Below are positions 1 to 7,128 of a stretch of 7,128 bases of DNA, piece after piece. The stretch is from a virus (taxonomy: Duplodnaviria; Heunggongvirae; Uroviricota; Caudoviricetes): the IMG/VR virus record IMGVR_UViG_2695420565_000021, positions 1 to 7,128 of that record; one strand, given 5' to 3'. The notes beneath the pieces were generated by a model, which was not told the origin of the DNA, searched no databases, and was given only the letters and a program-made list of their open reading frames with translations. The position numbers and the translations under genes were made by a program. The first letter of the stretch is position 1, and every line of letters starts with the position of its first letter.

Positions 1-140
1 CTCTCGTCTGGGGAATATCTCCCCGGCAGCCTTCAGGGAAAAATATCATCAGATAGCTGCTTAAAAAAAGAACAAATGGTAGTGTCCGCTATTGTCAGTA
101 CACCTCAAATATCGCAAAACTCAAGCGATACGAGCTTGAT

Positions 141-305
141 ATGGATGGTTGTGACTCGTTCGGTCAGGATTGTGGCGCTGACATGACTGAAGATTCTGAT
201 GGCGATTATGTCCTGTTTGATGACGTGGTTAAGTTGTTTGAGTTTGATACAACCACTCAGAAGATAGAAAGCCCAGCAAAGGAGGCAACCAGTGAGCGAA
301 ATTAA
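141..305 (+). CDS. Doubtful small acidic protein (54 aa)
   Basis: ATG at 141 to TAA at 303-305, found by hand translation; below the length cutoff of the supplied ORF track. Product MDGCDSFGQDCGADMTEDSDGDYVLFDDVVKLFEFDTTTQKIESPAKEATSERN has about 15 Asp/Glu against 4 Lys/Arg. Only a weak SD (GAG about 6 nt upstream). Its 3' end overlaps the next gene start by 14 nt in another frame. Confidence 0.25.
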   Translation: MDGCDSFGQDCGADMTEDSDGDYVLFDDVVKLFEFDTTTQKIESPAKEATSERN

Positions 306-942
306 TTACCAGGCACTGCGTGAGGCGGCAGAGCGTGCAATTCCGGCAATGGAACGCCTGTTAATGTTGCCAGTTGATGATGATTTGTTAAGTGAACAGG
401 AACTTAAAGATTACGGTGTGGATATTGATGCGCTCAACGCCTTCAAATTTCTGGCCGGACCAGAAACCGTGCTGGCACTACTGGATGAATGGGAAAGAAA
501 CCAGCAATACATCAAACGCCGCGACCAGGAGAACGAGGATATTGCGCTTACGGTTGGGAAGCTGCGCGTTGAGCTGGAAGGCAAAGACAGCAAAATAGCC
601 AATCTTACCGCCGAACGCGATGCTCTTCGTGAAGGTGAGATGGGCGACGCTAGGCATAGCAACACACGGGCCGCAGCTGATATCTACTTCCAACTGGTCG
701 AGGAATGCGAAATTCCTGCTGGCGGATCTCTGGTCGAGTACGTTGACGATATGCGCGAGAAGCTGGAAGCCGCAGAGAAGCGGATTGCTGAACTGGAAGC
801 GCGGGAAATATCGCTCCCAGAACGTAGCAGCATGCTTCATCGAACAGATTTTCACGAGGATTACCAAACGGTAATGGCATACAAAGTTTCTGAAGTCATC
901 GATGCAATCCGCGCTACTGGCATTCGCATCAAAGGAGAGTGA
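292..942 (+). CDS. Ea22-like prophage early-region protein with coiled-coil segments (216 aa)
   Basis: GTG start at 292 preceded by GGAGG at 281-285 (6-nt spacer). The translation has heptad-like charged stretches (IKRRDQENEDIALTVGKLRVELEGKDSKIANLTAERDALREGE, MREKLEAAEKRIAELEAREI) and an N-terminus MSEINYQALREAAE and C-terminus GIRIKGE that I recall as characteristic of lambda Ea22 and relatives. This is a memory-based assignment, not a search result. Confidence 0.7.
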   Translation: MSEINYQALREAAERAIPAMERLLMLPVDDDLLSEQELKDYGVDIDALNAFKFLAGPETVLALLDEWERNQQYIKRRDQENEDIALTVGKLRVELEGKDSKIANLTAERDALREGEMGDARHSNTRAAADIYFQLVEECEIPAGGSLVEYVDDMREKLEAAEKRIAELEAREISLPERSSMLHRTDFHEDYQTVMAYKVSEVIDAIRATGIRIKGE

Positions 943-943
943 T

Positions 944-1801
944 ATGAGCACTATCACTAAAGAACGTATCGAATTGTTCATTAAATCCCCGCTTGAAAAC
1001 GGGCTTACTCGTGGCGAACAAATGGAACTGGCACGAATTGCGCTGGCATCGCTGGAAGCAGAGCCTGTGGCGTATATCATTCAGGACTCTGACGCTCGTA
1101 GTCGTGGAGAGAAAGGCATCCTTCGCTATTTCGCAAATATCAGCGACGAGGATATAAACGAGTACGAAATTACCGTAACTCCGCTTTACGCCGCCCCTCC
1201 AGAGACGGTATCTGTGCCTGATGCGATGGAAATGGATGATGACTTTGACAGCGCGTTTGAACACGGAAAAGCTGTCGGCTGGAACGCCTATCGCGCAGCC
1301 ATGCTTCAGTCCGGAAACTTTCGGGAAAACAAGAATTCGTCAACCAATAATTTTCGTGAAATCGCGGAAACGTCAACCAACTATCCGGTAATTCCTAGTG
1401 AGGTGTTGTCCGCAATCCAGAAGGTTGCCAAGATTCGTGCCGATTTCGATGATTTTGACGGTGACAGGCGAGGTATCTGTGATTGTCTGGATGAGGCTGA
1501 GCAAGAGCTTATCGTTACCATTAACAAATATGCCAGTCAGTTGGCAGCAGAACCTATCGCGCCTAATGACGTTCGAGAGCAGACAGCCATTCCGCAAGTT
1601 CCGGTAACTCCGGATGGTTGGATAAGCTGTAGTGAGCGAATGCCGAAAGGGTATGCTGATGTGTTAGTGACCGATGGCGAGCATGTCGAGGTTAAATGGT
1701 GGGATGAATCTGGGTATTGGAATAGTTGGACGGAACTTAACTCAGATATCTTTGCCGATGAAATAACTCACTGGATGCCGCTACCAGAGCCTCCACTTTG
1801 A
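944..1801 (+). CDS. DUF551 domain-containing prophage protein (285 aa)
   Basis: ATG at 944 with SD AAGGAGAG at 932-939, one nucleotide after the upstream TGA (940-942), which suggests translational coupling. The C-terminus (PDGWISCSERMPKGYADVLVTDGEHVEVKWWDESGYWNSWTELNSDIFADEITHWMPLPEPP) matches the DUF551 signature as I recall it. The ORF-track start at 902 is in the same frame but lies inside the upstream gene and has no SD. Confidence 0.8.
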   Translation: MSTITKERIELFIKSPLENGLTRGEQMELARIALASLEAEPVAYIIQDSDARSRGEKGILRYFANISDEDINEYEITVTPLYAAPPETVSVPDAMEMDDDFDSAFEHGKAVGWNAYRAAMLQSGNFRENKNSSTNNFREIAETSTNYPVIPSEVLSAIQKVAKIRADFDDFDGDRRGICDCLDEAEQELIVTINKYASQLAAEPIAPNDVREQTAIPQVPVTPDGWISCSERMPKGYADVLVTDGEHVEVKWWDESGYWNSWTELNSDIFADEITHWMPLPEPPL

Positions 1802-1897
1802 AAGCGAAGCTTATACATATCTTTTACATCAGCAATCTATTGTTAATCTCCAATCAATGTTACGTTGTCATCTCACTCATGCTTTGGAGGTAGTGAT

Positions 1898-2077
1898 ATG
1901 TCTTGTCCAAAATGCGGTTCTGGAAATATTGCAAAAGAAAAAACAATGCGTGGATGGTCTGATGATTATGTGTGCTGCGATTGCGGATACAACGACTCTA
2001 AAGACGCATTTGGAGAGCGTGGTAAAAACGATTTTGTCAAAATTAATAAAGAACGCGAAGGCAACGAAAAAAGCTAA
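1898..2077 (+). CDS. Small Cys4 zinc-ribbon protein (59 aa)
   Basis: ATG at 1898 preceded by GGAGG at 1886-1890 (7-nt spacer). Product MSCPKCGSGNIAKEKTMRGWSDDYVCCDCGYNDSKDAFGERGKNDFVKINKEREGNEKS has a CxxC...CCxC cysteine arrangement and a Lys/Glu-rich tail. The gene is AT-rich relative to its neighbours and is followed by an intrinsic terminator. The ORF-track start at 1865 is a TTG without SD. Confidence 0.6.
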   Translation: MSCPKCGSGNIAKEKTMRGWSDDYVCCDCGYNDSKDAFGERGKNDFVKINKEREGNEKS

Positions 2078-2140
2078 TTTATTTATTCATATATGAAAAC
2101 AATGTAACCAATATTCGAATTGAAGAACTGAAAGAACACC

Positions 2141-2164
2141 AAGCCGCCTGATGGCGGTTTTTTT
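2141..2164 (+). terminator. Rho-independent terminator downstream of the zinc-ribbon gene
   Basis: Stem AGCCGCC (2142-2148) / GGCGGTT (2153-2159) with loop TGAT, running into a run of 7 T (2158-2164); located 64 nt after the zinc-ribbon stop codon. Confidence 0.55.
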
Positions 2165-2178
2165 ATTGGAGACAAGAA

Positions 2179-2523
2179 ATGTCAGATTTGGCTATGAAGG
2201 TTTTGAAATGGCAATCGACTGGCGATGTCGGCATCAGTAGCGCAACTCTTGCCTCAATCGCATGTGGACTGAAAAAGAATATCTATGGTCATCACTTCGG
2301 CGCTCCACATGACGCAGCAGACTTCCGGCGATGCGTTGCACTTGTTGAGCAGATTCCAGAAATCAGAGATTCATTCGACAAGGTTGCAAAGCGCGTTCCG
2401 GCATTCAAAGGAATCCTCAACGAATGGGATTCACTCGTTGCTCTGTTGAAGTCTGAAATGAAGATACACGAAAACAAAGCACCAGAGACTTACAGAAGAA
2501 TTAGCGAGCTACGCAAGGACTAA
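2179..2523 (+). CDS. Hypothetical prophage accessory protein (114 aa), family not recognised
   Basis: ATG at 2179 with GGAG at 2168-2171 (7-nt spacer). Soluble-looking product with no obvious transmembrane segment (MSDLAMKVLKWQSTGDVGISSATLASIACGLKKNIYGHHFGAPHDAADFRRCVALVEQ...). Flanked by a terminator upstream and hairpin plus T-tract downstream. Confidence 0.6.
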   Translation: MSDLAMKVLKWQSTGDVGISSATLASIACGLKKNIYGHHFGAPHDAADFRRCVALVEQIPEIRDSFDKVAKRVPAFKGILNEWDSLVALLKSEMKIHENKAPETYRRISELRKD

Positions 2524-2524
2524 C

Positions 2525-2543
2525 GCCTCACACTCGATGAGGC
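2525..2543 (+). other. Perfect 6-bp stem-loop immediately after the 114-aa gene stop, without a U-tract
   Basis: GCCTCA (2525-2530), loop CACTCGA, TGAGGC (2538-2543). It starts 2 nt after the TAA at 2521-2523. Could be an RNA-stabilising or processing hairpin rather than a terminator. Confidence 0.3.
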
Positions 2544-2562
2544 CTGTACATATCTGATAGAT

Positions 2563-2585
2563 CCGCTATATGGCGGTTTCTTTTT
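2563..2585 (+). terminator. Weak candidate intrinsic terminator upstream of the AlpA-family gene
   Basis: Short GC stem CCGC (2563-2566) / GCGG (2573-2576) followed by TTTCTTTTT (2577-2585). The sequence resembles the terminator at 2141-2164 (CCGCCTGATGGCGGTTTTTTT versus CCGCTATATGGCGGTTTCTTTTT). Confidence 0.35.
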
Positions 2586-2600
2586 GCCTGGAGAATTAAG

Positions 2601-2792
2601 ATGACCGATACCAGCCTGATTCCTGAGAAAGAAGTGATGAACAAGCTCGGTGTTTCATCACGTCAGACAATCTGGAACTATACCAAACGGCACGGATTTC
2701 CGAAGCCAGTCAGAACCCACCCCAAATCATACCTTCGTGAAGCTGTTGAGGGGTGGATTCTTAACGGTGGCGTTAATCAGAAATGCTCCTGA
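2601..2792 (+). CDS. alpA: AlpA/Xis-family helix-turn-helix protein (prophage excisionase or integrase regulator), 63 aa
   Basis: ATG at 2601 with GGAG at 2590-2593 (7-nt spacer). Translation shows the AlpA-type HTH pattern (KLGVSSRQTIWNYTKRHGFPKPVRTHPKSYLREAVEGWI). Lies directly beside the integrase. An in-frame ATG at 2638 is an alternative start. The gene symbol reflects family membership only. Confidence 0.7.
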   Translation: MTDTSLIPEKEVMNKLGVSSRQTIWNYTKRHGFPKPVRTHPKSYLREAVEGWILNGGVNQKCS

Positions 2793-3951
2793 TGTGCCAG
2801 AACAATTTATCAGCGTGAAGCTCATACGCTTTGCGCTGAGCCTCTATCCAGTCGTGTTTATTGTATACGGACATTATCCCGCCAAGTTCATGACCGAGCA
2901 TTCGCTCAGTAACATGAGGCTCGACATTCATCTCGGACAGACGTGTAACAAGCGTTCTTCTGAAATCATGTGTTCGCCAGTAACCTAGATCCATCCCTCC
3001 CCTTATTCTATTTACGAATCGGTTGGCTGCAGCGATGCTGATCGGTTTGTTTATGTCTTCTCCAGGGAAAAGAACATCATTGTACGTTGTCATGGCCTTT
3101 TCGAGAAAAGGCTTAATTTGTTCGAATATTGGACGACGGATAACATTACCCATCTTGCTATGCTCTTTCGGTACGGTCCATACGTTGTCCAGCAGGTCAA
3201 ATTCTGTCTTTGTTGCCAGCCTAAGCTCTGAGAGCCTCGCCCCCCACAGCATAAGCATCTGATGAAGGAGCTTATTTGACGTAGACGCACGGCTTCTTTC
3301 AATAGCAAGCCAAATCTTAGCCAGTTCGTGATACGACAGTACCCGATCCCCTACCTCAGCGCGGGAGCCGAAGTCCCTTGGTTGGATGCTCATAATTGCG
3401 CAACTATCTATCAACTGACGCCGCATGCACCAACTTATTGCTGATCTTAGTTGACTTAGCACCTGCCTTGCTCGGCGTGGATTATCTCTTTCTTCTTCGG
3501 TAAGCAGGTCAACCCATTGCTTAACCGTGATAGAAGATGCCGGACGATTAGGAAAGGCGTCATGCATGCGCTTCATAACCGTTGATCGGTAAAGTGCCTG
3601 GGTCTTTTCTCTGAGAGTTGTAGAGACGTAGTTGTCGAACCAGTAGTCGAGACACTGGGCGACCGTCATGGAGTTCTCCACCTTCTCTTCAAAATAAGTG
3701 CGTGGATCCGTTCCTGAGAAATAGAGCTTTCGCAAGTCAGCAGTGATCTGTCTGGCATCCTTCAAAGACAGGGATGGGTATCGACCAAGCCCAAGTCGAT
3801 TAGGCTTGCCATGCCAGCGATAGCGGTACTGGAACTGGATGACCCCCTTCGGTGAAATTCGTACGCTGAGGCCATCGGCATCAGCCACTTCTTGTGGGCC
3901 CGAATATGGTTTACCATAAATAGTACGCAGTTTTGTGTCGCTTATAGCCAT
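2773..3951 (-). CDS. int: Tyrosine-type site-specific integrase of the P4/IntS type (392 aa)
   Basis: Full-length - strand ORF. N-terminal arm-binding-like region (LSVRISPKGVIQFQYRYRWHGKPNRLGLGRYPSLSLKDAR) and C-terminal catalytic signature (HDFRRT as the H-x-x-R box, and SVYNKH with the candidate catalytic Tyr). No SD before the ATG. Family named from memory of the fold signature. Confidence 0.9.
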   Translation of the reverse strand: MAISDTKLRTIYGKPYSGPQEVADADGLSVRISPKGVIQFQYRYRWHGKPNRLGLGRYPSLSLKDARQITADLRKLYFSGTDPRTYFEEKVENSMTVAQCLDYWFDNYVSTTLREKTQALYRSTVMKRMHDAFPNRPASSITVKQWVDLLTEEERDNPRRARQVLSQLRSAISWCMRRQLIDSCAIMSIQPRDFGSRAEVGDRVLSYHELAKIWLAIERSRASTSNKLLHQMLMLWGARLSELRLATKTEFDLLDNVWTVPKEHSKMGNVIRRPIFEQIKPFLEKAMTTYNDVLFPGEDINKPISIAAANRFVNRIRGGMDLGYWRTHDFRRTLVTRLSEMNVEPHVTERMLGHELGGIMSVYNKHDWIEAQRKAYELHADKLFWHIRSISD

Positions 3952-4132
3952 AAATAATATTTGGTACGCTCAGAAATAATAGTTTGGTACACACCTGGTA
4001 CACAATATCACATGGACAACAGCGCACAGTAAACAACTATATTTGACGTTCGTAGACATACTCAGGTGAAAAAATGGTTGTTTTTCGAGTTATAACAGAC
4101 AGTTAATTAACTACAGTGGACAATGCTAGACA
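3952..4132. promoter_or_regulatory. Integrase-sbcB intergenic region carrying candidate attachment-site arm repeats and the divergent int and sbcB promoters
   Basis: Direct repeats AAATAATA(G)TTTGGTAC (3952-3967 and 3974-3990), GGTACACA twice with about 10-bp phasing (3987-3994 and 3997-4004), GACAATG twice (4119-4125 and 4129-4135), and CACAG(A)TAAACAAC (4025-4037 here, 4141-4154 inside sbcB). Promoter-like hexamers exist on both strands (for example TATAAC at 4091-4096) but none with a convincing -35/-10 pair. Confidence 0.4.
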
Positions 4133-5557
4133 ATGACAGACACAGATAAACAACCTACCTTCCTCTTTCACGATTACGAAACCTTTGGCACGCACCCCGC
4201 GTTAGATCGCCCTGCACAGTTCGCAGCCATTCGCACCGATAGCGAATTCAATGTCATCGGCGAACCCGAAGTCTTTTACTGCAAGCCCGCTGATGACTAT
4301 TTACCCCAGCCAGGAGCCGTATTAATTACCGGTATTACCCCGCAGGAAGCACGGGCGAAAGGAGAAAACGAAGCCGCGTTTGCCGCCCGTATTCACTCGC
4401 TTTTTACCGTACCGAAGACCTGTATTCTGGGCTACAACAATGTGCGTTTCGACGACGAAGTCACACGCAACATTTTTTATCGTAATTTCTACGATCCTTA
4501 CGCCTGGAGCTGGCAGCATGATAACTCGCGCTGGGATTTACTGGATGTTATGCGTGCCTGTTATGCCCTGCGCCCGGAAGGAATAAACTGGCCTGAAAAT
4601 GATGACGGTCTACCGAGCTTTCGCCTTGAGCATTTAACCAAAGCGAATGGTATTGAACATAGCAACGCCCACGATGCGATGGCTGATGTGTACGCCACTA
4701 TTGCGATGGCAAAGCTGGTAAAAACGCGTCAGCCACGCCTGTTTGATTATCTCTTTACCCATCGTAATAAACACAAACTGATGGCGTTGATTGATGTTCC
4801 GCAGATGAAACCCCTGGTGCACGTTTCCGGAATGTTTGGAGCATGGCGCGGCAATACCAGCTGGGTGGCACCGCTGGCGTGGCATCCTGAAAATCGCAAT
4901 GCCGTAATTATGGTGGATTTGGCAGGAGACATTTCGCCATTACTGGAACTGGATAGCGACACATTGCGCGAGCGTTTATATACCGCAAAAACCGATCTTG
5001 GCGATAACGCCGCCGTTCCGGTTAAGCTGGTGCATATCAATAAATGTCCGGTGCTGGCCCAGGCGAATACGCTACGCCCGGAAGATGCCGACCGACTGGG
5101 AATTAATCGTCAGCATTGCCTCGATAACCTGAAAATTCTGCGTGAAAATCCGCAAGTGCGCGAAAAAGTGGTGGCGATATTCGCGGAAGCCGAACCGTTT
5201 ACGCCTTCAGATAACGTGGATGCACAGCTTTATAACGGCTTTTTCAGTGACGCAGATCGTGCAGCAATGAAAATTGTGCTGGAAACCGAGCCGCGTAATT
5301 TACCGGCACTGGATATCACTTTTGTTGATAAACGGATTGAAAAGCTGTTGTTCAATTATCGGGCACGCAACTTCCCGGGGACGCTGGATTATGCCGAGCA
5401 GCAACGCTGGCTGGAGCACCGTCGCCAGGTCTTCACGCCAGAGTTTTTGCAGGGTTATGCTGATGAATTGCAGATGCTGGTACAACAATATGCCGATGAC
5501 AAAGAGAAAGTGGCGCTGTTAAAAGCACTTTGGCAGTACGCGGAAGAGATTGTCTAA
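4133..5557 (+). CDS. sbcB: Exodeoxyribonuclease I (exonuclease I, 3'-5' ssDNA exonuclease), 474 aa
   Basis: Full-length ORF whose translation from residue 9 onward matches E. coli SbcB as I recall it (FLFHDYETFGTHPALDRPAQFAAIRTD... to ...ALWQYAEEIV). The first 9 residues (MTDTDKQPT) differ from the K-12 N-terminus I remember (MMNDGKQQST). No clear SD. Confidence 0.95.
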   Translation: MTDTDKQPTFLFHDYETFGTHPALDRPAQFAAIRTDSEFNVIGEPEVFYCKPADDYLPQPGAVLITGITPQEARAKGENEAAFAARIHSLFTVPKTCILGYNNVRFDDEVTRNIFYRNFYDPYAWSWQHDNSRWDLLDVMRACYALRPEGINWPENDDGLPSFRLEHLTKANGIEHSNAHDAMADVYATIAMAKLVKTRQPRLFDYLFTHRNKHKLMALIDVPQMKPLVHVSGMFGAWRGNTSWVAPLAWHPENRNAVIMVDLAGDISPLLELDSDTLRERLYTAKTDLGDNAAVPVKLVHINKCPVLAQANTLRPEDADRLGINRQHCLDNLKILRENPQVREKVVAIFAEAEPFTPSDNVDAQLYNGFFSDADRAAMKIVLETEPRNLPALDITFVDKRIEKLLFNYRARNFPGTLDYAEQQRWLEHRRQVFTPEFLQGYADELQMLVQQYADDKEKVALLKALWQYAEEIV

Positions 5558-5599
5558 TTTGAAGCCTTCGCCGCTGGTACGGCGGAGGACAATGTTGAG

Positions 5600-5827
5600 T
5601 CAGGCTTTTTGAACGGTGATGCTCCACGCTGCATCGCCAATCTGCTGATAATCGGTGATGGCATGTCCTTCTTCTGCCGCCCACTGTGGGATTGCTTCAG
5701 TTGCCTGGGTGCAATCAAACTCAATCACTAACTCATCGCCGCTGACCATTTCTGCCAGAGCTGCTTTTGCTTCTATGAGTGGAAACGGACAGACCTGCGT
5801 CACCACATCCAGCTTTTTAATCACCAT
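5600..5827 (-). CDS. yeeD: TusA-like sulfur-carrier protein YeeD (75 aa)
   Basis: Small - strand ORF with the TusA-family CPFP motif (MVIKKLDVVTQVCPFPLIEAKAAL...), 13 nt downstream of yeeE on the same strand (operon arrangement), convergent with sbcB. Confidence 0.9.
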   Translation of the reverse strand: MVIKKLDVVTQVCPFPLIEAKAALAEMVSGDELVIEFDCTQATEAIPQWAAEEGHAITDYQQIGDAAWSITVQKA

Positions 5828-5840
5828 CTTTACACCTTAC

Positions 5841-6899
5841 TTAATTTGCCGCAGCAGTTGCCAGTCGCGCCTTACGCTGCGGTCGAACATACACAAGCCA
5901 GGACGCAGTCCAGACTCCGAGAATCATAAATACAAGGCCAATCCAGCCCTGCCAGGTCATCATTGCAGTCATAACCAGTCCATTACCGATAGAGCAACCA
6001 CCTGCAATACTGGCACCGAAGCCCATCAGTACACCACCTAACCCGCTACGTAATGTTGTTTGTGCATCAGCTGCGCGAACGCGGAACTCACGGCTCGCTT
6101 TGGCTGCAATAAATGACCCCACGAAGATCCCTAACACCAGGAAAACGCCCCAGTTAATGTATTTCATGTCACCCGCGACCAGAAATTGCAGAATATTGGC
6201 CGTTGGGGAAGTGATTCCTAACCCAAACATGCGTCCGGTTGCTTCACTCAGGGGCCAGGCTAAAAGCGCAATCAAACCGATGAGTACAGCAGTGACAAAG
6301 GGATGCCAGCGTTTTTCAAACAGAATATGAGCGATCCCGGTTCGGCGCGGCGGTAAGGTCGCGACTTTGAGTTTTGGCTTCTTCAACTCTTTCATCACCA
6401 CCCAGAGCGTTATCACCAGCAAAACGGCAACCAACGGCCACACAGACAAATTAAAAGTCTCAGCAATAGAGTTATGTTCAGTACTGTAGTGCTGCAAGGT
6501 TTGATTTAAACCACTGGCATGTGGAGAACGCATCACCGCACTCATCACCATATAAGTGAAAAGCGCGATCCAACTGCCGATCAATCCCTCACCCGCGCGA
6601 TACCAGGTCCCGGTGGCACATCCACCCGCCAGAACAATTCCCAGCCCGAAGATATACCCACCTATAACAGTACCAAGCCACGGGAACGCCCCGGCTTCGT
6701 AAGTCAGTAGGCCCGCCTGAATTAACGCAAAAACCCCCACGCTTTGTACCGAAATTGCAATCAGCAAGGCGTAAAACATGCGATTATTTTTCACGATATA
6801 CATATCGCGAAAACCACCTGTCAGGCAAAAACGCCCACGCTGCATGACAAATCCCAGCAGAGCACCACAAATTAGCCCGCTTAATATCATTGAAAACAT
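5841..6899 (-). CDS. yeeE: YeeE/YedE-family inner-membrane transporter (thiosulfate uptake), 352 aa
   Basis: Long - strand ORF encoding a highly hydrophobic multi-pass membrane protein with repeated Cys-containing motifs (RGRFCLTGGFRD, GGCATGTWYRAGEG, GGCSIGNG) typical of YeeE/YedE. Conserved position upstream of yeeD. Confidence 0.9.
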   Translation of the reverse strand: MFSMILSGLICGALLGFVMQRGRFCLTGGFRDMYIVKNNRMFYALLIAISVQSVGVFALIQAGLLTYEAGAFPWLGTVIGGYIFGLGIVLAGGCATGTWYRAGEGLIGSWIALFTYMVMSAVMRSPHASGLNQTLQHYSTEHNSIAETFNLSVWPLVAVLLVITLWVVMKELKKPKLKVATLPPRRTGIAHILFEKRWHPFVTAVLIGLIALLAWPLSEATGRMFGLGITSPTANILQFLVAGDMKYINWGVFLVLGIFVGSFIAAKASREFRVRAADAQTTLRSGLGGVLMGFGASIAGGCSIGNGLVMTAMMTWQGWIGLVFMILGVWTASWLVYVRPQRKARLATAAAN

Positions 6900-7053
6900 A
6901 AATTAATTAACCAGATGAATGTTAATGAGGAAATTATTCATGACTGGTGGAATGCAGACCAATAACCAAATTCTCTAAATTAGAACAAATGGTTATTAAT
7001 GAGGAGTTCGATACAAAAGAATAAAAAAACCGAAGCCAGGTAATGACTCCAAC

Positions 7054-7128
7054 TTACTGATAGTGTTTTATGTTCAGATAATGCCCGATGACCTTGTCAT
7101 GCAGCTCCACCGATTTTGAGAACGACAG
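7054..7128 (-). CDS. plaP: Probable 3' end of an upstream - strand gene, consistent by synteny with plaP/yeeF (partial, continues beyond the window)
   Basis: The only - strand frame open to the window edge reads ...LSFSKSVELHDKVIGHYLNIKHYQ then stop (TAA complement at 7054-7056). Assignment to plaP/yeeF rests on remembered gene order sbcB-yeeD-yeeE-yeeF, not on the 24 visible residues. Confidence 0.4.
   Translation of the reverse strand: MSFSKSVELHDKVIGHYLNIKHYQ

Follow-up and report, generated by a model that had tools for sequence, protein, structure and literature searches.

The 7,128-nucleotide (nt) stretch of DNA analysed here (positions 1 to 7,128 of IMG/VR virus record IMGVR_UViG_2695420565_000021, Caudoviricetes; in its full length referred to as the window) comprises the end of a lambdoid prophage next to the Escherichia coli gene sbcB (4133-5557), which is followed by yeeD and yeeE. 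Close to this prophage end, a gene for a 114-amino acid (aa) protein, ORF114, is located between two terminator-like hairpins, A and B, the second of which precedes an alpA-type excisionase gene. With a probability of roughly 0.8, ORF114 together with its own ribosome-binding site (RBS) and 3' flank constitutes a cassette of one gene that is dispensable and exchanged horizontally, occupying the final slot of the leftward early operon, between a terminator of the lambda tL3 type and alpA. A preliminary description of the window had proposed that an orphan gene was inserted here as a moron-like cassette by recombination between two similar junctions. The slot and its immediate borders contain the following features.

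1898-2077, + strand: gene for a 59-aa zinc-ribbon protein, termed 'Eag protein' in RefSeq (open reading frame, ORF; phrog_2945); upstream neighbour of the slot in this prophage
2104-2143, + strand: remnant of lambda orf55 (phrog_676), covering its 3' end, with the same sequence as the terminal part of the intact gene in lambda and 434
2141-2164, + strand: junction A, terminator hairpin with T tract (terminator scan; same hairpin in lambda DE3)
2151-2160, + strand: left copy of the 10-nt direct repeat ATGGCGGTTT, crossover point (alignment with EM03-18-08)
2165-2178, + strand: cargo-specific leader with RBS TGGAGA (2167-2172), 6 nt before the ATG
2179-2523, + strand: ORF114, conserved phage protein of 114 aa (434 ORF114, HK022 gp32, phrog_1229)
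2525-2548, + strand: GCCTCA..TGAGGC palindrome, remnant of an HTH_17 excisionase gene of the P22 type; conserved linker on the right of filled slots
2563-2585, + strand: junction B, weaker terminator hairpin, whose 3' arm and tail form the conserved alpA lead-in
2570-2579, + strand: right copy of the 10-nt direct repeat ATGGCGGTTT, with a class of megablast breakpoints starting at 2570
2601-2792, + strand: alpA-type excisionase/regulator gene (phrog_66), with RBS TGGAGA at 2589-2594

Empty and filled slots in related prophages

Evidence for a removable segment is provided by the sbcB prophage of E. coli EM03-18-08, which matches the window at every base from the Eag gene to the end of ...GCCGCCTGATGGCGGTTT and then continues directly with CTTTTTGCCTGGAGAATTAAGATG(alpA), again identical to the window. 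The two sequences are thus the same on both flanks and differ by a single indel of 419 bp, located between the two copies of ATGGCGGTTT. The junction of the empty allele is a hybrid in which the 5' arm and loop of hairpin A are joined to the 3' arm of hairpin B with its tail and RBS, and the same hybrid is found in 2014C-4587 and O111:H8 TW05614 behind other upstream genes. To sample this region more broadly, 100 alpA starts, mostly from IMG/VR contigs, were collected with a pattern inside alpA itself. A single hairpin-A-type junction, representing the empty state, precedes 38 of them and hairpin B precedes the other 62, with no third type; both classes contain a C/A polymorphism immediately behind GGCGGTTT.

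The slot can also hold other genes. In phage Sf101 and the sbcB prophage of E. coli isolate OZ040555, junction A and the right flank are the same as in the window and enclose a different cargo, namely an unrelated hydrophobic membrane ORF of 71 aa (phrog_15342). This ORF has its own RBS, GGGGTAGTAG, which replaces the ORF114 leader (2165-2178), and the ORF114 leader in turn moves with its gene into phage 2851. Approximately 36 of the hairpin-B loci contain ORF114 and approximately 13 the 71-aa ORF, the rest being deletion remnants or rare other genes, and hairpin B is followed by alpA in 57 of 59 sites. The comparison of related prophages that had been suggested as a check on variability between the junctions therefore gave a positive result, with both empty sites and other cargo, and the proposal that the segment is a cassette agrees with its empty, alternatively filled and differently placed forms. 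The accompanying proposal of two similar junctions has to be modified on the left side, as the TGGAGA found there belongs to the cargo and the alternative cargo carries GGGGTAG.

Additionally, ORF114 is found in other contexts. It lies between hairpin A and lambda-type xis/int in phages 434, HK022 and Huey and in strain YP3, and ahead of torI in strain EBJ001. In phages 2851, 1717 and mEp234, the gene stands behind another terminator, CTCGC-TACG-GCGAG-TTTTGTTTT-ATGGAGA, with the crossover in the T tract and TGGAGA. Since a terminator of this type normally precedes lambda orf55, the orf55 unit is missing in these phages. Homologues in Cronobacter and Citrobacter adjoin the excision/integration module and occur next to four different integrase modules. 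The module types next to ORF114 homologues include lambda xis/int, torI and alpA with a P4-type int, as well as P22-type xis/int and DUF1233 with an Arm-DNA-bind_2 int. Megablast alignments were made with 50,697 phage records and with 5426 complete E. coli genomes, of which 1171 match, and their breakpoints cluster at window positions 2104, 2153-2168, 2524/2525, 2543-2562 and 2570. Exchange boundaries are found at four places: the T tract and RBS after hairpin A, the ORF114 stop codon, the excisionase relic and the 3' arm of hairpin B.

The repeat could also be taken for a 10-bp target duplication left by a transposon-like insertion. This reading was rejected, because the repeat is part of the two terminator hairpins; it is also ruled out by the occurrence of the same flanks with different cargo and of the same cargo with other flanks.

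Deletions have also been recorded in this region. HK97 gp37 (L234, 430-530) is the product of a deletion that fuses the start of an Ea22-like gene to the last ~50 nt of ORF114, and the same deletion is present in the sbcB prophage of E. coli TUM12357 (L011, 1460-1550). The protein database contains many further chimeras, in which pieces of ORF114 are joined to Erf, Kil, Ea22 or dATP/dGTP pyrophosphohydrolase genes. Together, the chimeras and the shared deletion indicate that illegitimate deletions are frequent here.

Structure of the two junctions and the origin of hairpin A

Junction A consists of AAGCCGCC-TGAT-GGCGGTTT (2141-2160), with the T run extending to 2164, followed by TGGAGA and the ATG of ORF114 at 2179. 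Junction B is composed of CCGCT-ATAT-GGCGG (2563-2576) and TTTCTTTTT, followed by TGGAGA and the ATG of alpA at 2601. At both junctions the arrangement is TGGAGA-N6-ATG, the first bases of the two motifs being 12 nt apart; the hairpin arm, T tract and spacing reported in the preliminary description can be read directly from the sequence. The hairpins are in the same register: each has a core of 14 bases, made up of a 5-bp stem and a loop of 4 nt, and they agree at 11 of these positions; the 10-mer ATGGCGGTTT is common to both. A pattern scan classifies both as terminator-like, and both agree with the definition of a Rho-independent terminator: hairpin A has eight pairs (five G-C) and a T7 tract, with a predicted stability of -12.5 kcal/mol, and hairpin B has five pairs (four G-C, one G-U) followed by TTTCTTTTT, with a predicted stability of -7.3 kcal/mol.

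Hairpin A can be traced to lambda. In the DE3 prophage and the lambda record J02459, an identical 60-nt block comprises the last codons of orf55 (...EHQAA, with the stop codon in the loop) and the hairpin, which is located directly upstream of the pI region and xis. From the lambda map, we take hairpin A to be the terminator tL3. The records of 434 and HK97 carry a terminator annotation at the equivalent site, and record J02459 has none at the position of hairpin A; a literature search on tL3 mapping, ORF114 and lambdoid hotspots retrieved nothing specific. Only the last ~40 nt of orf55 are left in the window (2104-2143), behind the Eag gene. The 60-nt block (2104-2164) is almost unchanged behind three upstream genes, i.e. 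intact orf55, Eag and a phrog_3680 gene (L009), and its left homology boundary falls within ~3 nt in each of these contexts.

On the right-hand side, the partners were read from 146 occurrences of hairpin A among the matches listed. Within this set, the hairpin is followed by the lambda xis lead-in (52), the torI lead-in (~37), ORF114 (~32), the 71-aa ORF (~11) or alpA directly (~9), with single cases of other genes, among them a 209-aa gene with an intact P22-type xis behind it (IMG/VR contig L063, near 6890). With at least five different right-hand partners, hairpin A represents a shared joint of the mosaic.

The length of the T tract of hairpin A varies between 6 and 8 T among phages. In phages with 6 T, the ORF114 reading frame can be extended back to an ATG in the hairpin loop, and gene-calling programs give a product of 123 aa (MAVFYWRQEMSDL..., P0001); with the 7 T of the window, the loop ATG is out of frame with ORF114. 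Joints of similar design are seen elsewhere. In Cronobacter prophages (L227 and L229, ~2940-3400), successive small genes at the end of the early operon are each joined by hairpin-T6-ATTGGAGA-N5-ATG, and the lead-in of lambda orf55 has the same design, T tract-ATGGAGA-N6-ATG. A joint of terminator plus TGGAGA therefore recurs across genera and is found at three consecutive junctions in E. coli phages.

In Rfam, all matches of the region remained below threshold and were due to the terminator hairpin; they were isrK (18 bits versus a cut-off of 50), the Phe and Trp leaders and STnc420. An isrK-like small RNA was considered as an explanation for the conserved 60-nt block and rejected.

A relic of a P22-type excisionase gene behind the cargo

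Directly after the ORF114 stop codon, the sequence GCCTCACACTCGATGAGGCCTG (2525-2548) folds as a 6-bp palindrome. It is found behind every cargo in filled slots, always ahead of hairpin B, and moves with ORF114 into phage 434. The palindrome corresponds to codons 5-12 (SLTLDEAC) of a P22-type HTH_17 excisionase gene and matches the intact 5' end of such a gene in a Cronobacter prophage (L228, 3380-3751) at 20 of 22 positions. Of the P22-type xis, 53 colinear nt are left in phage 434 and ~53 nt each in HK022, Huey and HK97. In Cronobacter prophages, the ORF114 homologue (78% identical) ends in ...DAA with its stop codon inside the loop of a GCCGCC-TGAT-GGCGGC-T6 hairpin, as in lambda orf55. This hairpin is followed by the RBS CCTGGAGA and an intact HTH_17 excisionase, MEQYSLTLDEACAMLGISRPTATNWIKSGRLQ..., which overlaps the start of the integrase gene. 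Judged by these alignments, the palindrome is a fossil of an earlier P22-type excision module. Its interpretation as an RNA element was rejected, since it is a coding relic of the P22-type excisionase.

The ORF114 protein family

The term orphan, used in the preliminary description, does not apply to ORF114. The protein matches phrog_1229 (E 5e-52) and has relatives in 202 phage records and 63 clusters, while an exhaustive HMMER search retrieved 1838 remote representatives at E<=1e-3. It corresponds to 'ORF114' of the phage 434 entry M60848 from 1990 and to HK022 gp32, according to a note in the HK97 record. Extrapolated roughly from evenly spaced rows, the number of complete E. coli genomes with ORF114 is about 880 out of 5426 (~1 in 6); the only exact count is that of ORF114 plus alpA, which is found in 274 complete E. 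coli genomes. In an alignment of 45 remote members, G18, S20, P43, D45, D48, R51, C52 and W83 are invariant, giving the family signature G-x-S...P-x-D-x-x-D-x-x-R-C...W. AlphaFold2 predicts a confident seven-helix bundle, with a predicted local distance difference test (pLDDT) score of 93 and a predicted template modelling (pTM) score of 0.87. The conserved alignment and the pLDDT value indicate that the gene is real.

Searches for a function were negative in several resources. A sequence profile search of the PDB gave no match to a known fold (best E 0.31), and a search of BFVD returned only uncharacterised viral proteins. Pfam, NCBIfam and PADLOC yielded no match for ORF114, the best PADLOC hit (DndE, E 0.038, 11.8 bits) being noise, and Pfam likewise yielded nothing for 45 remote homologues and ten long fusion members. 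It may be guessed that ORF114 is an early accessory or host-interaction factor. A wider and tentative extension, considered unlikely overall, would regard phrog_1229 as a large, uncharacterised family whose small helical proteins have a fold absent from the PDB, are made early after induction and neutralise a host or competitor function (anti-defence or host takeover), and the slot as a general exchange point for such genes in lambdoid phages of several genera.

Neighbouring genes

All phage genes in the window are on the + strand except the integrase gene. In addition to those given above, the prophage end contains the following genes.

292-942, + strand: Ead/Ea22-like gene
944-1801, + strand: DUF551 gene
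2773-3951, - strand: P4-type tyrosine integrase (Arm-DNA-bind_3 and Phage_integrase domains), convergent with alpA; the prophage end abuts sbcB

The product of alpA matches phrog_66, 'excisionase and transcriptional regulator', with an E-value of 1.9e-8, and Pfam Phage_AlpA with 17.8 bits (E 0.0032), below the gathering cut-off of 21 bits; its name in RefSeq varies between AlpA family and helix-turn-helix (HTH) regulator. The 3' ends of alpA and the convergent integrase gene overlap by 20 nt (2773-2792). Several related sbcB prophages carry IS1203 or IS100 insertions beside junction B or inside the integrase gene, leaving alpA stranded; examples of such loci are L010 (E. coli NZRM4169; 245-1458), L009 (2171-3331) and L006 (2292-3876). 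The 59-aa Eag protein shows sub-threshold similarity to the Lar restriction-alleviation family (PF14354, E 9.6e-5, 23 bits, cut-off 28.6; TIGR03655, E 0.033), and its zinc-ribbon matches in Pfam are likewise sub-threshold.

Expression of ORF114 and alternative explanations

According to the proposed mechanism, a terminator directly ahead of the excisionase gene would be kept, which would account for the similar junctions and for the fact that the cassette ends in a second terminator. The short repeats would allow deletion or re-insertion by short-homology recombination, carried out by a phage system of the Red/RecT type or by a host system. ORF114 would be transcribed during induction or lytic growth and translated from TGGAGA-N6-ATG, and hairpin B would then restore the barrier before alpA.

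Several points weigh against this reading, beginning with the likeness of the junctions itself. The local alignment score of junctions A and B (15) was reached in 1 of 5000 mononucleotide shuffles. As this null model overlooks that both sites are a terminator plus a Shine-Dalgarno site, a fairer background was compiled from 728 distinct terminator-like sites in the lambdoid DNA collected for the comparison, 662 of which lack GGCGGTTT. Forty of these 662 sites equal or exceed junction B in their match to junction A; they include several variants or overlapping registers of junction A and of a further junction, C, as well as some unrelated terminators, e.g. AAGCCGCCTTCTGGCGGCTTTTTT. Taken by itself, the pairwise similarity of A and B thus carries little weight. 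TGGAGA-N6-ATG differs little from a generic Shine-Dalgarno arrangement, and the junctions could have come to resemble each other by functional convergence, without having taken part in the original insertion. Hairpin B is weak and has an interrupted T tract, its activity as a terminator being a prediction, and the 419-bp event may have been either an insertion or a deletion. The homologue in Citrobacter starts 9 nt after the preceding gene without a terminator, which indicates that flanking terminators are not universal for the gene. Finally, the most likely timing of expression is deduced from sequence features, with the antiterminator gene lying outside the window.

A fixed operon member, whose junctions resemble each other only through the generic consensus of terminators and Shine-Dalgarno sites, would agree with the 40 equally similar sites, with the generic, sub-threshold terminator matches in Rfam and with the occurrence of TGGAGA-N6-ATG ahead of orf55 too. 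This explanation is nevertheless very improbable and is already contradicted by EM03-18-08, the empty modules and the alternative cargo: exact empty counterparts contain a single A/B hybrid junction with the crossover within ATGGCGGTTT, other cargo is found between the same flanks and 38 of the 100 sampled modules are empty. The objection that the junctions might reflect no more than a generic terminator consensus, anticipated in the preliminary description, would be tenable on similarity alone and is overruled by the empty sites and alternative cargo. It is the comparative evidence, not the similarity score, that makes the observation meaningful.

The presence/absence polymorphism between otherwise collinear prophages and the terminator downstream of ORF114 would also be expected for a classical moron, i.e. 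a gene with its own promoter and terminator that is expressed from the repressed prophage and benefits the lysogen, for instance by phage exclusion. The alternative cargo, a small membrane protein, points in the same direction, and such proteins are a type often seen among exclusion genes. However, a consensus scan of the 14 nt between hairpin A and the ATG detected no sigma-70-like site. In a relaxed scan, the best upstream match (8/12) is located ahead of the terminator, and matches of this quality occur 39 times on the same strand of the window, i.e. at background level. ORF114 is also co-oriented with a long early operon and stands at its end, and it has no PADLOC match. A classical moron is thus an improbable explanation, and the designation moron-like fails in its strict sense. 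As the scans show no promoter for the cassette and a strong terminator lies immediately upstream, ORF114 is most likely read only by antiterminated early-left transcripts, and for this reason the gene is not classified as a strict moron.

A functional link to excision or integration, with ORF114 acting for example as an accessory factor or regulator of recombination directionality, would give its placement a meaning of its own. Homologues directly upstream of at least five non-homologous modules in E. coli, Cronobacter and Citrobacter, as well as the P22-type xis relic that accompanies ORF114, would be in line with such a role. Yet the gene is absent from lambda and from ~38% of otherwise intact-looking alpA modules, unrelated genes replace it in the same slot, and a terminator separates it from the excisionase gene; its position also coincides with the end of the early operon, a place at which accessory genes accumulate anyway. 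An involvement in excision is accordingly regarded as quite unlikely, and a dispensable single-gene cassette is preferred as the explanation for ORF114.

Comparison with known systems

The closest counterpart of the left border is tL3 in the N-antiterminated pL operon of lambda. Hairpin A is base-for-base the same as the hairpin between orf55 and pI/xis and has the same orientation and position. The window differs from lambda in containing a cassette and a weaker second terminator before alpA, a convergent integrase of the P4 type and no pI/CII site.

Morons of lambdoid phages were reportedly described by Juhala and colleagues in 2000 from a comparison of HK97 and HK022. Like these elements, the ORF114 segment is extra DNA with one gene, is absent in collinear relatives, lies between two genes and has a terminator downstream; unlike them, it has no detectable promoter of its own. 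Expression in the lysogen is a hallmark of morons, whereas the position of the cassette just after a strong terminator, in an operon that depends on antitermination, would make lysogen expression unlikely.

Another type of variable locus is represented by the hotspots of P2 phages and P4 satellites, which hold multi-gene defence systems that are expressed in the lysogen (Rousset et al., 2022; PMC9122126). They share with the present slot a fixed location in a temperate element, conserved flanks and alternative cargo; they differ in that this slot holds single small genes without a PADLOC match. Integron cassettes are comparable as promoterless single-gene units arranged in series behind an upstream promoter, with imperfect palindromes at their ends. 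However, no IntI-type integrase acts on the slot and no attC or attI sites are apparent, although no search aimed at attC was made; the integrase adjacent to ORF114 is of the P4 type, the palindromes are terminators and the boundaries vary, so the resemblance is architectural only.

A further comparison is with the exchange of modules at conserved linkers. Lambdoid phages are said to exchange modules in the modular theory attributed to Susskind and Botstein, a study of HK620 by Clark and colleagues in 2001 reportedly found module exchange at conserved linkers, and work by De Paepe and colleagues in 2014 is said to have implicated relaxed homologous recombination in lambdoid module exchange. 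Here too, mosaic boundaries are located at gene ends, short intergenic sequences are common to unrelated neighbours and the hybrids cross within homologies of 10-12 nt. What sets the present slot apart is that its linkers are terminator hairpins with T tracts, combined with the relic of an older excisionase, a feature not known to have been reported for it. The finding is an ordinary, well-resolved instance of known lambdoid mosaicism, and the current understanding of phage mosaicism is unchanged by it. Its value lies in a base-resolved case of single-gene gain, loss and swap, in which empty, filled and alternative states are available and the crossovers fall inside terminator hairpins, and in ORF114 as a member of a widespread family with a confident but unmatched fold, which makes it a candidate for functional screens. 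The small additions are the tL3-type hairpin as a recurrent recombination joint, shared by at least five right-hand modules, and the start of a fossil excisionase gene that is carried with the cargo.

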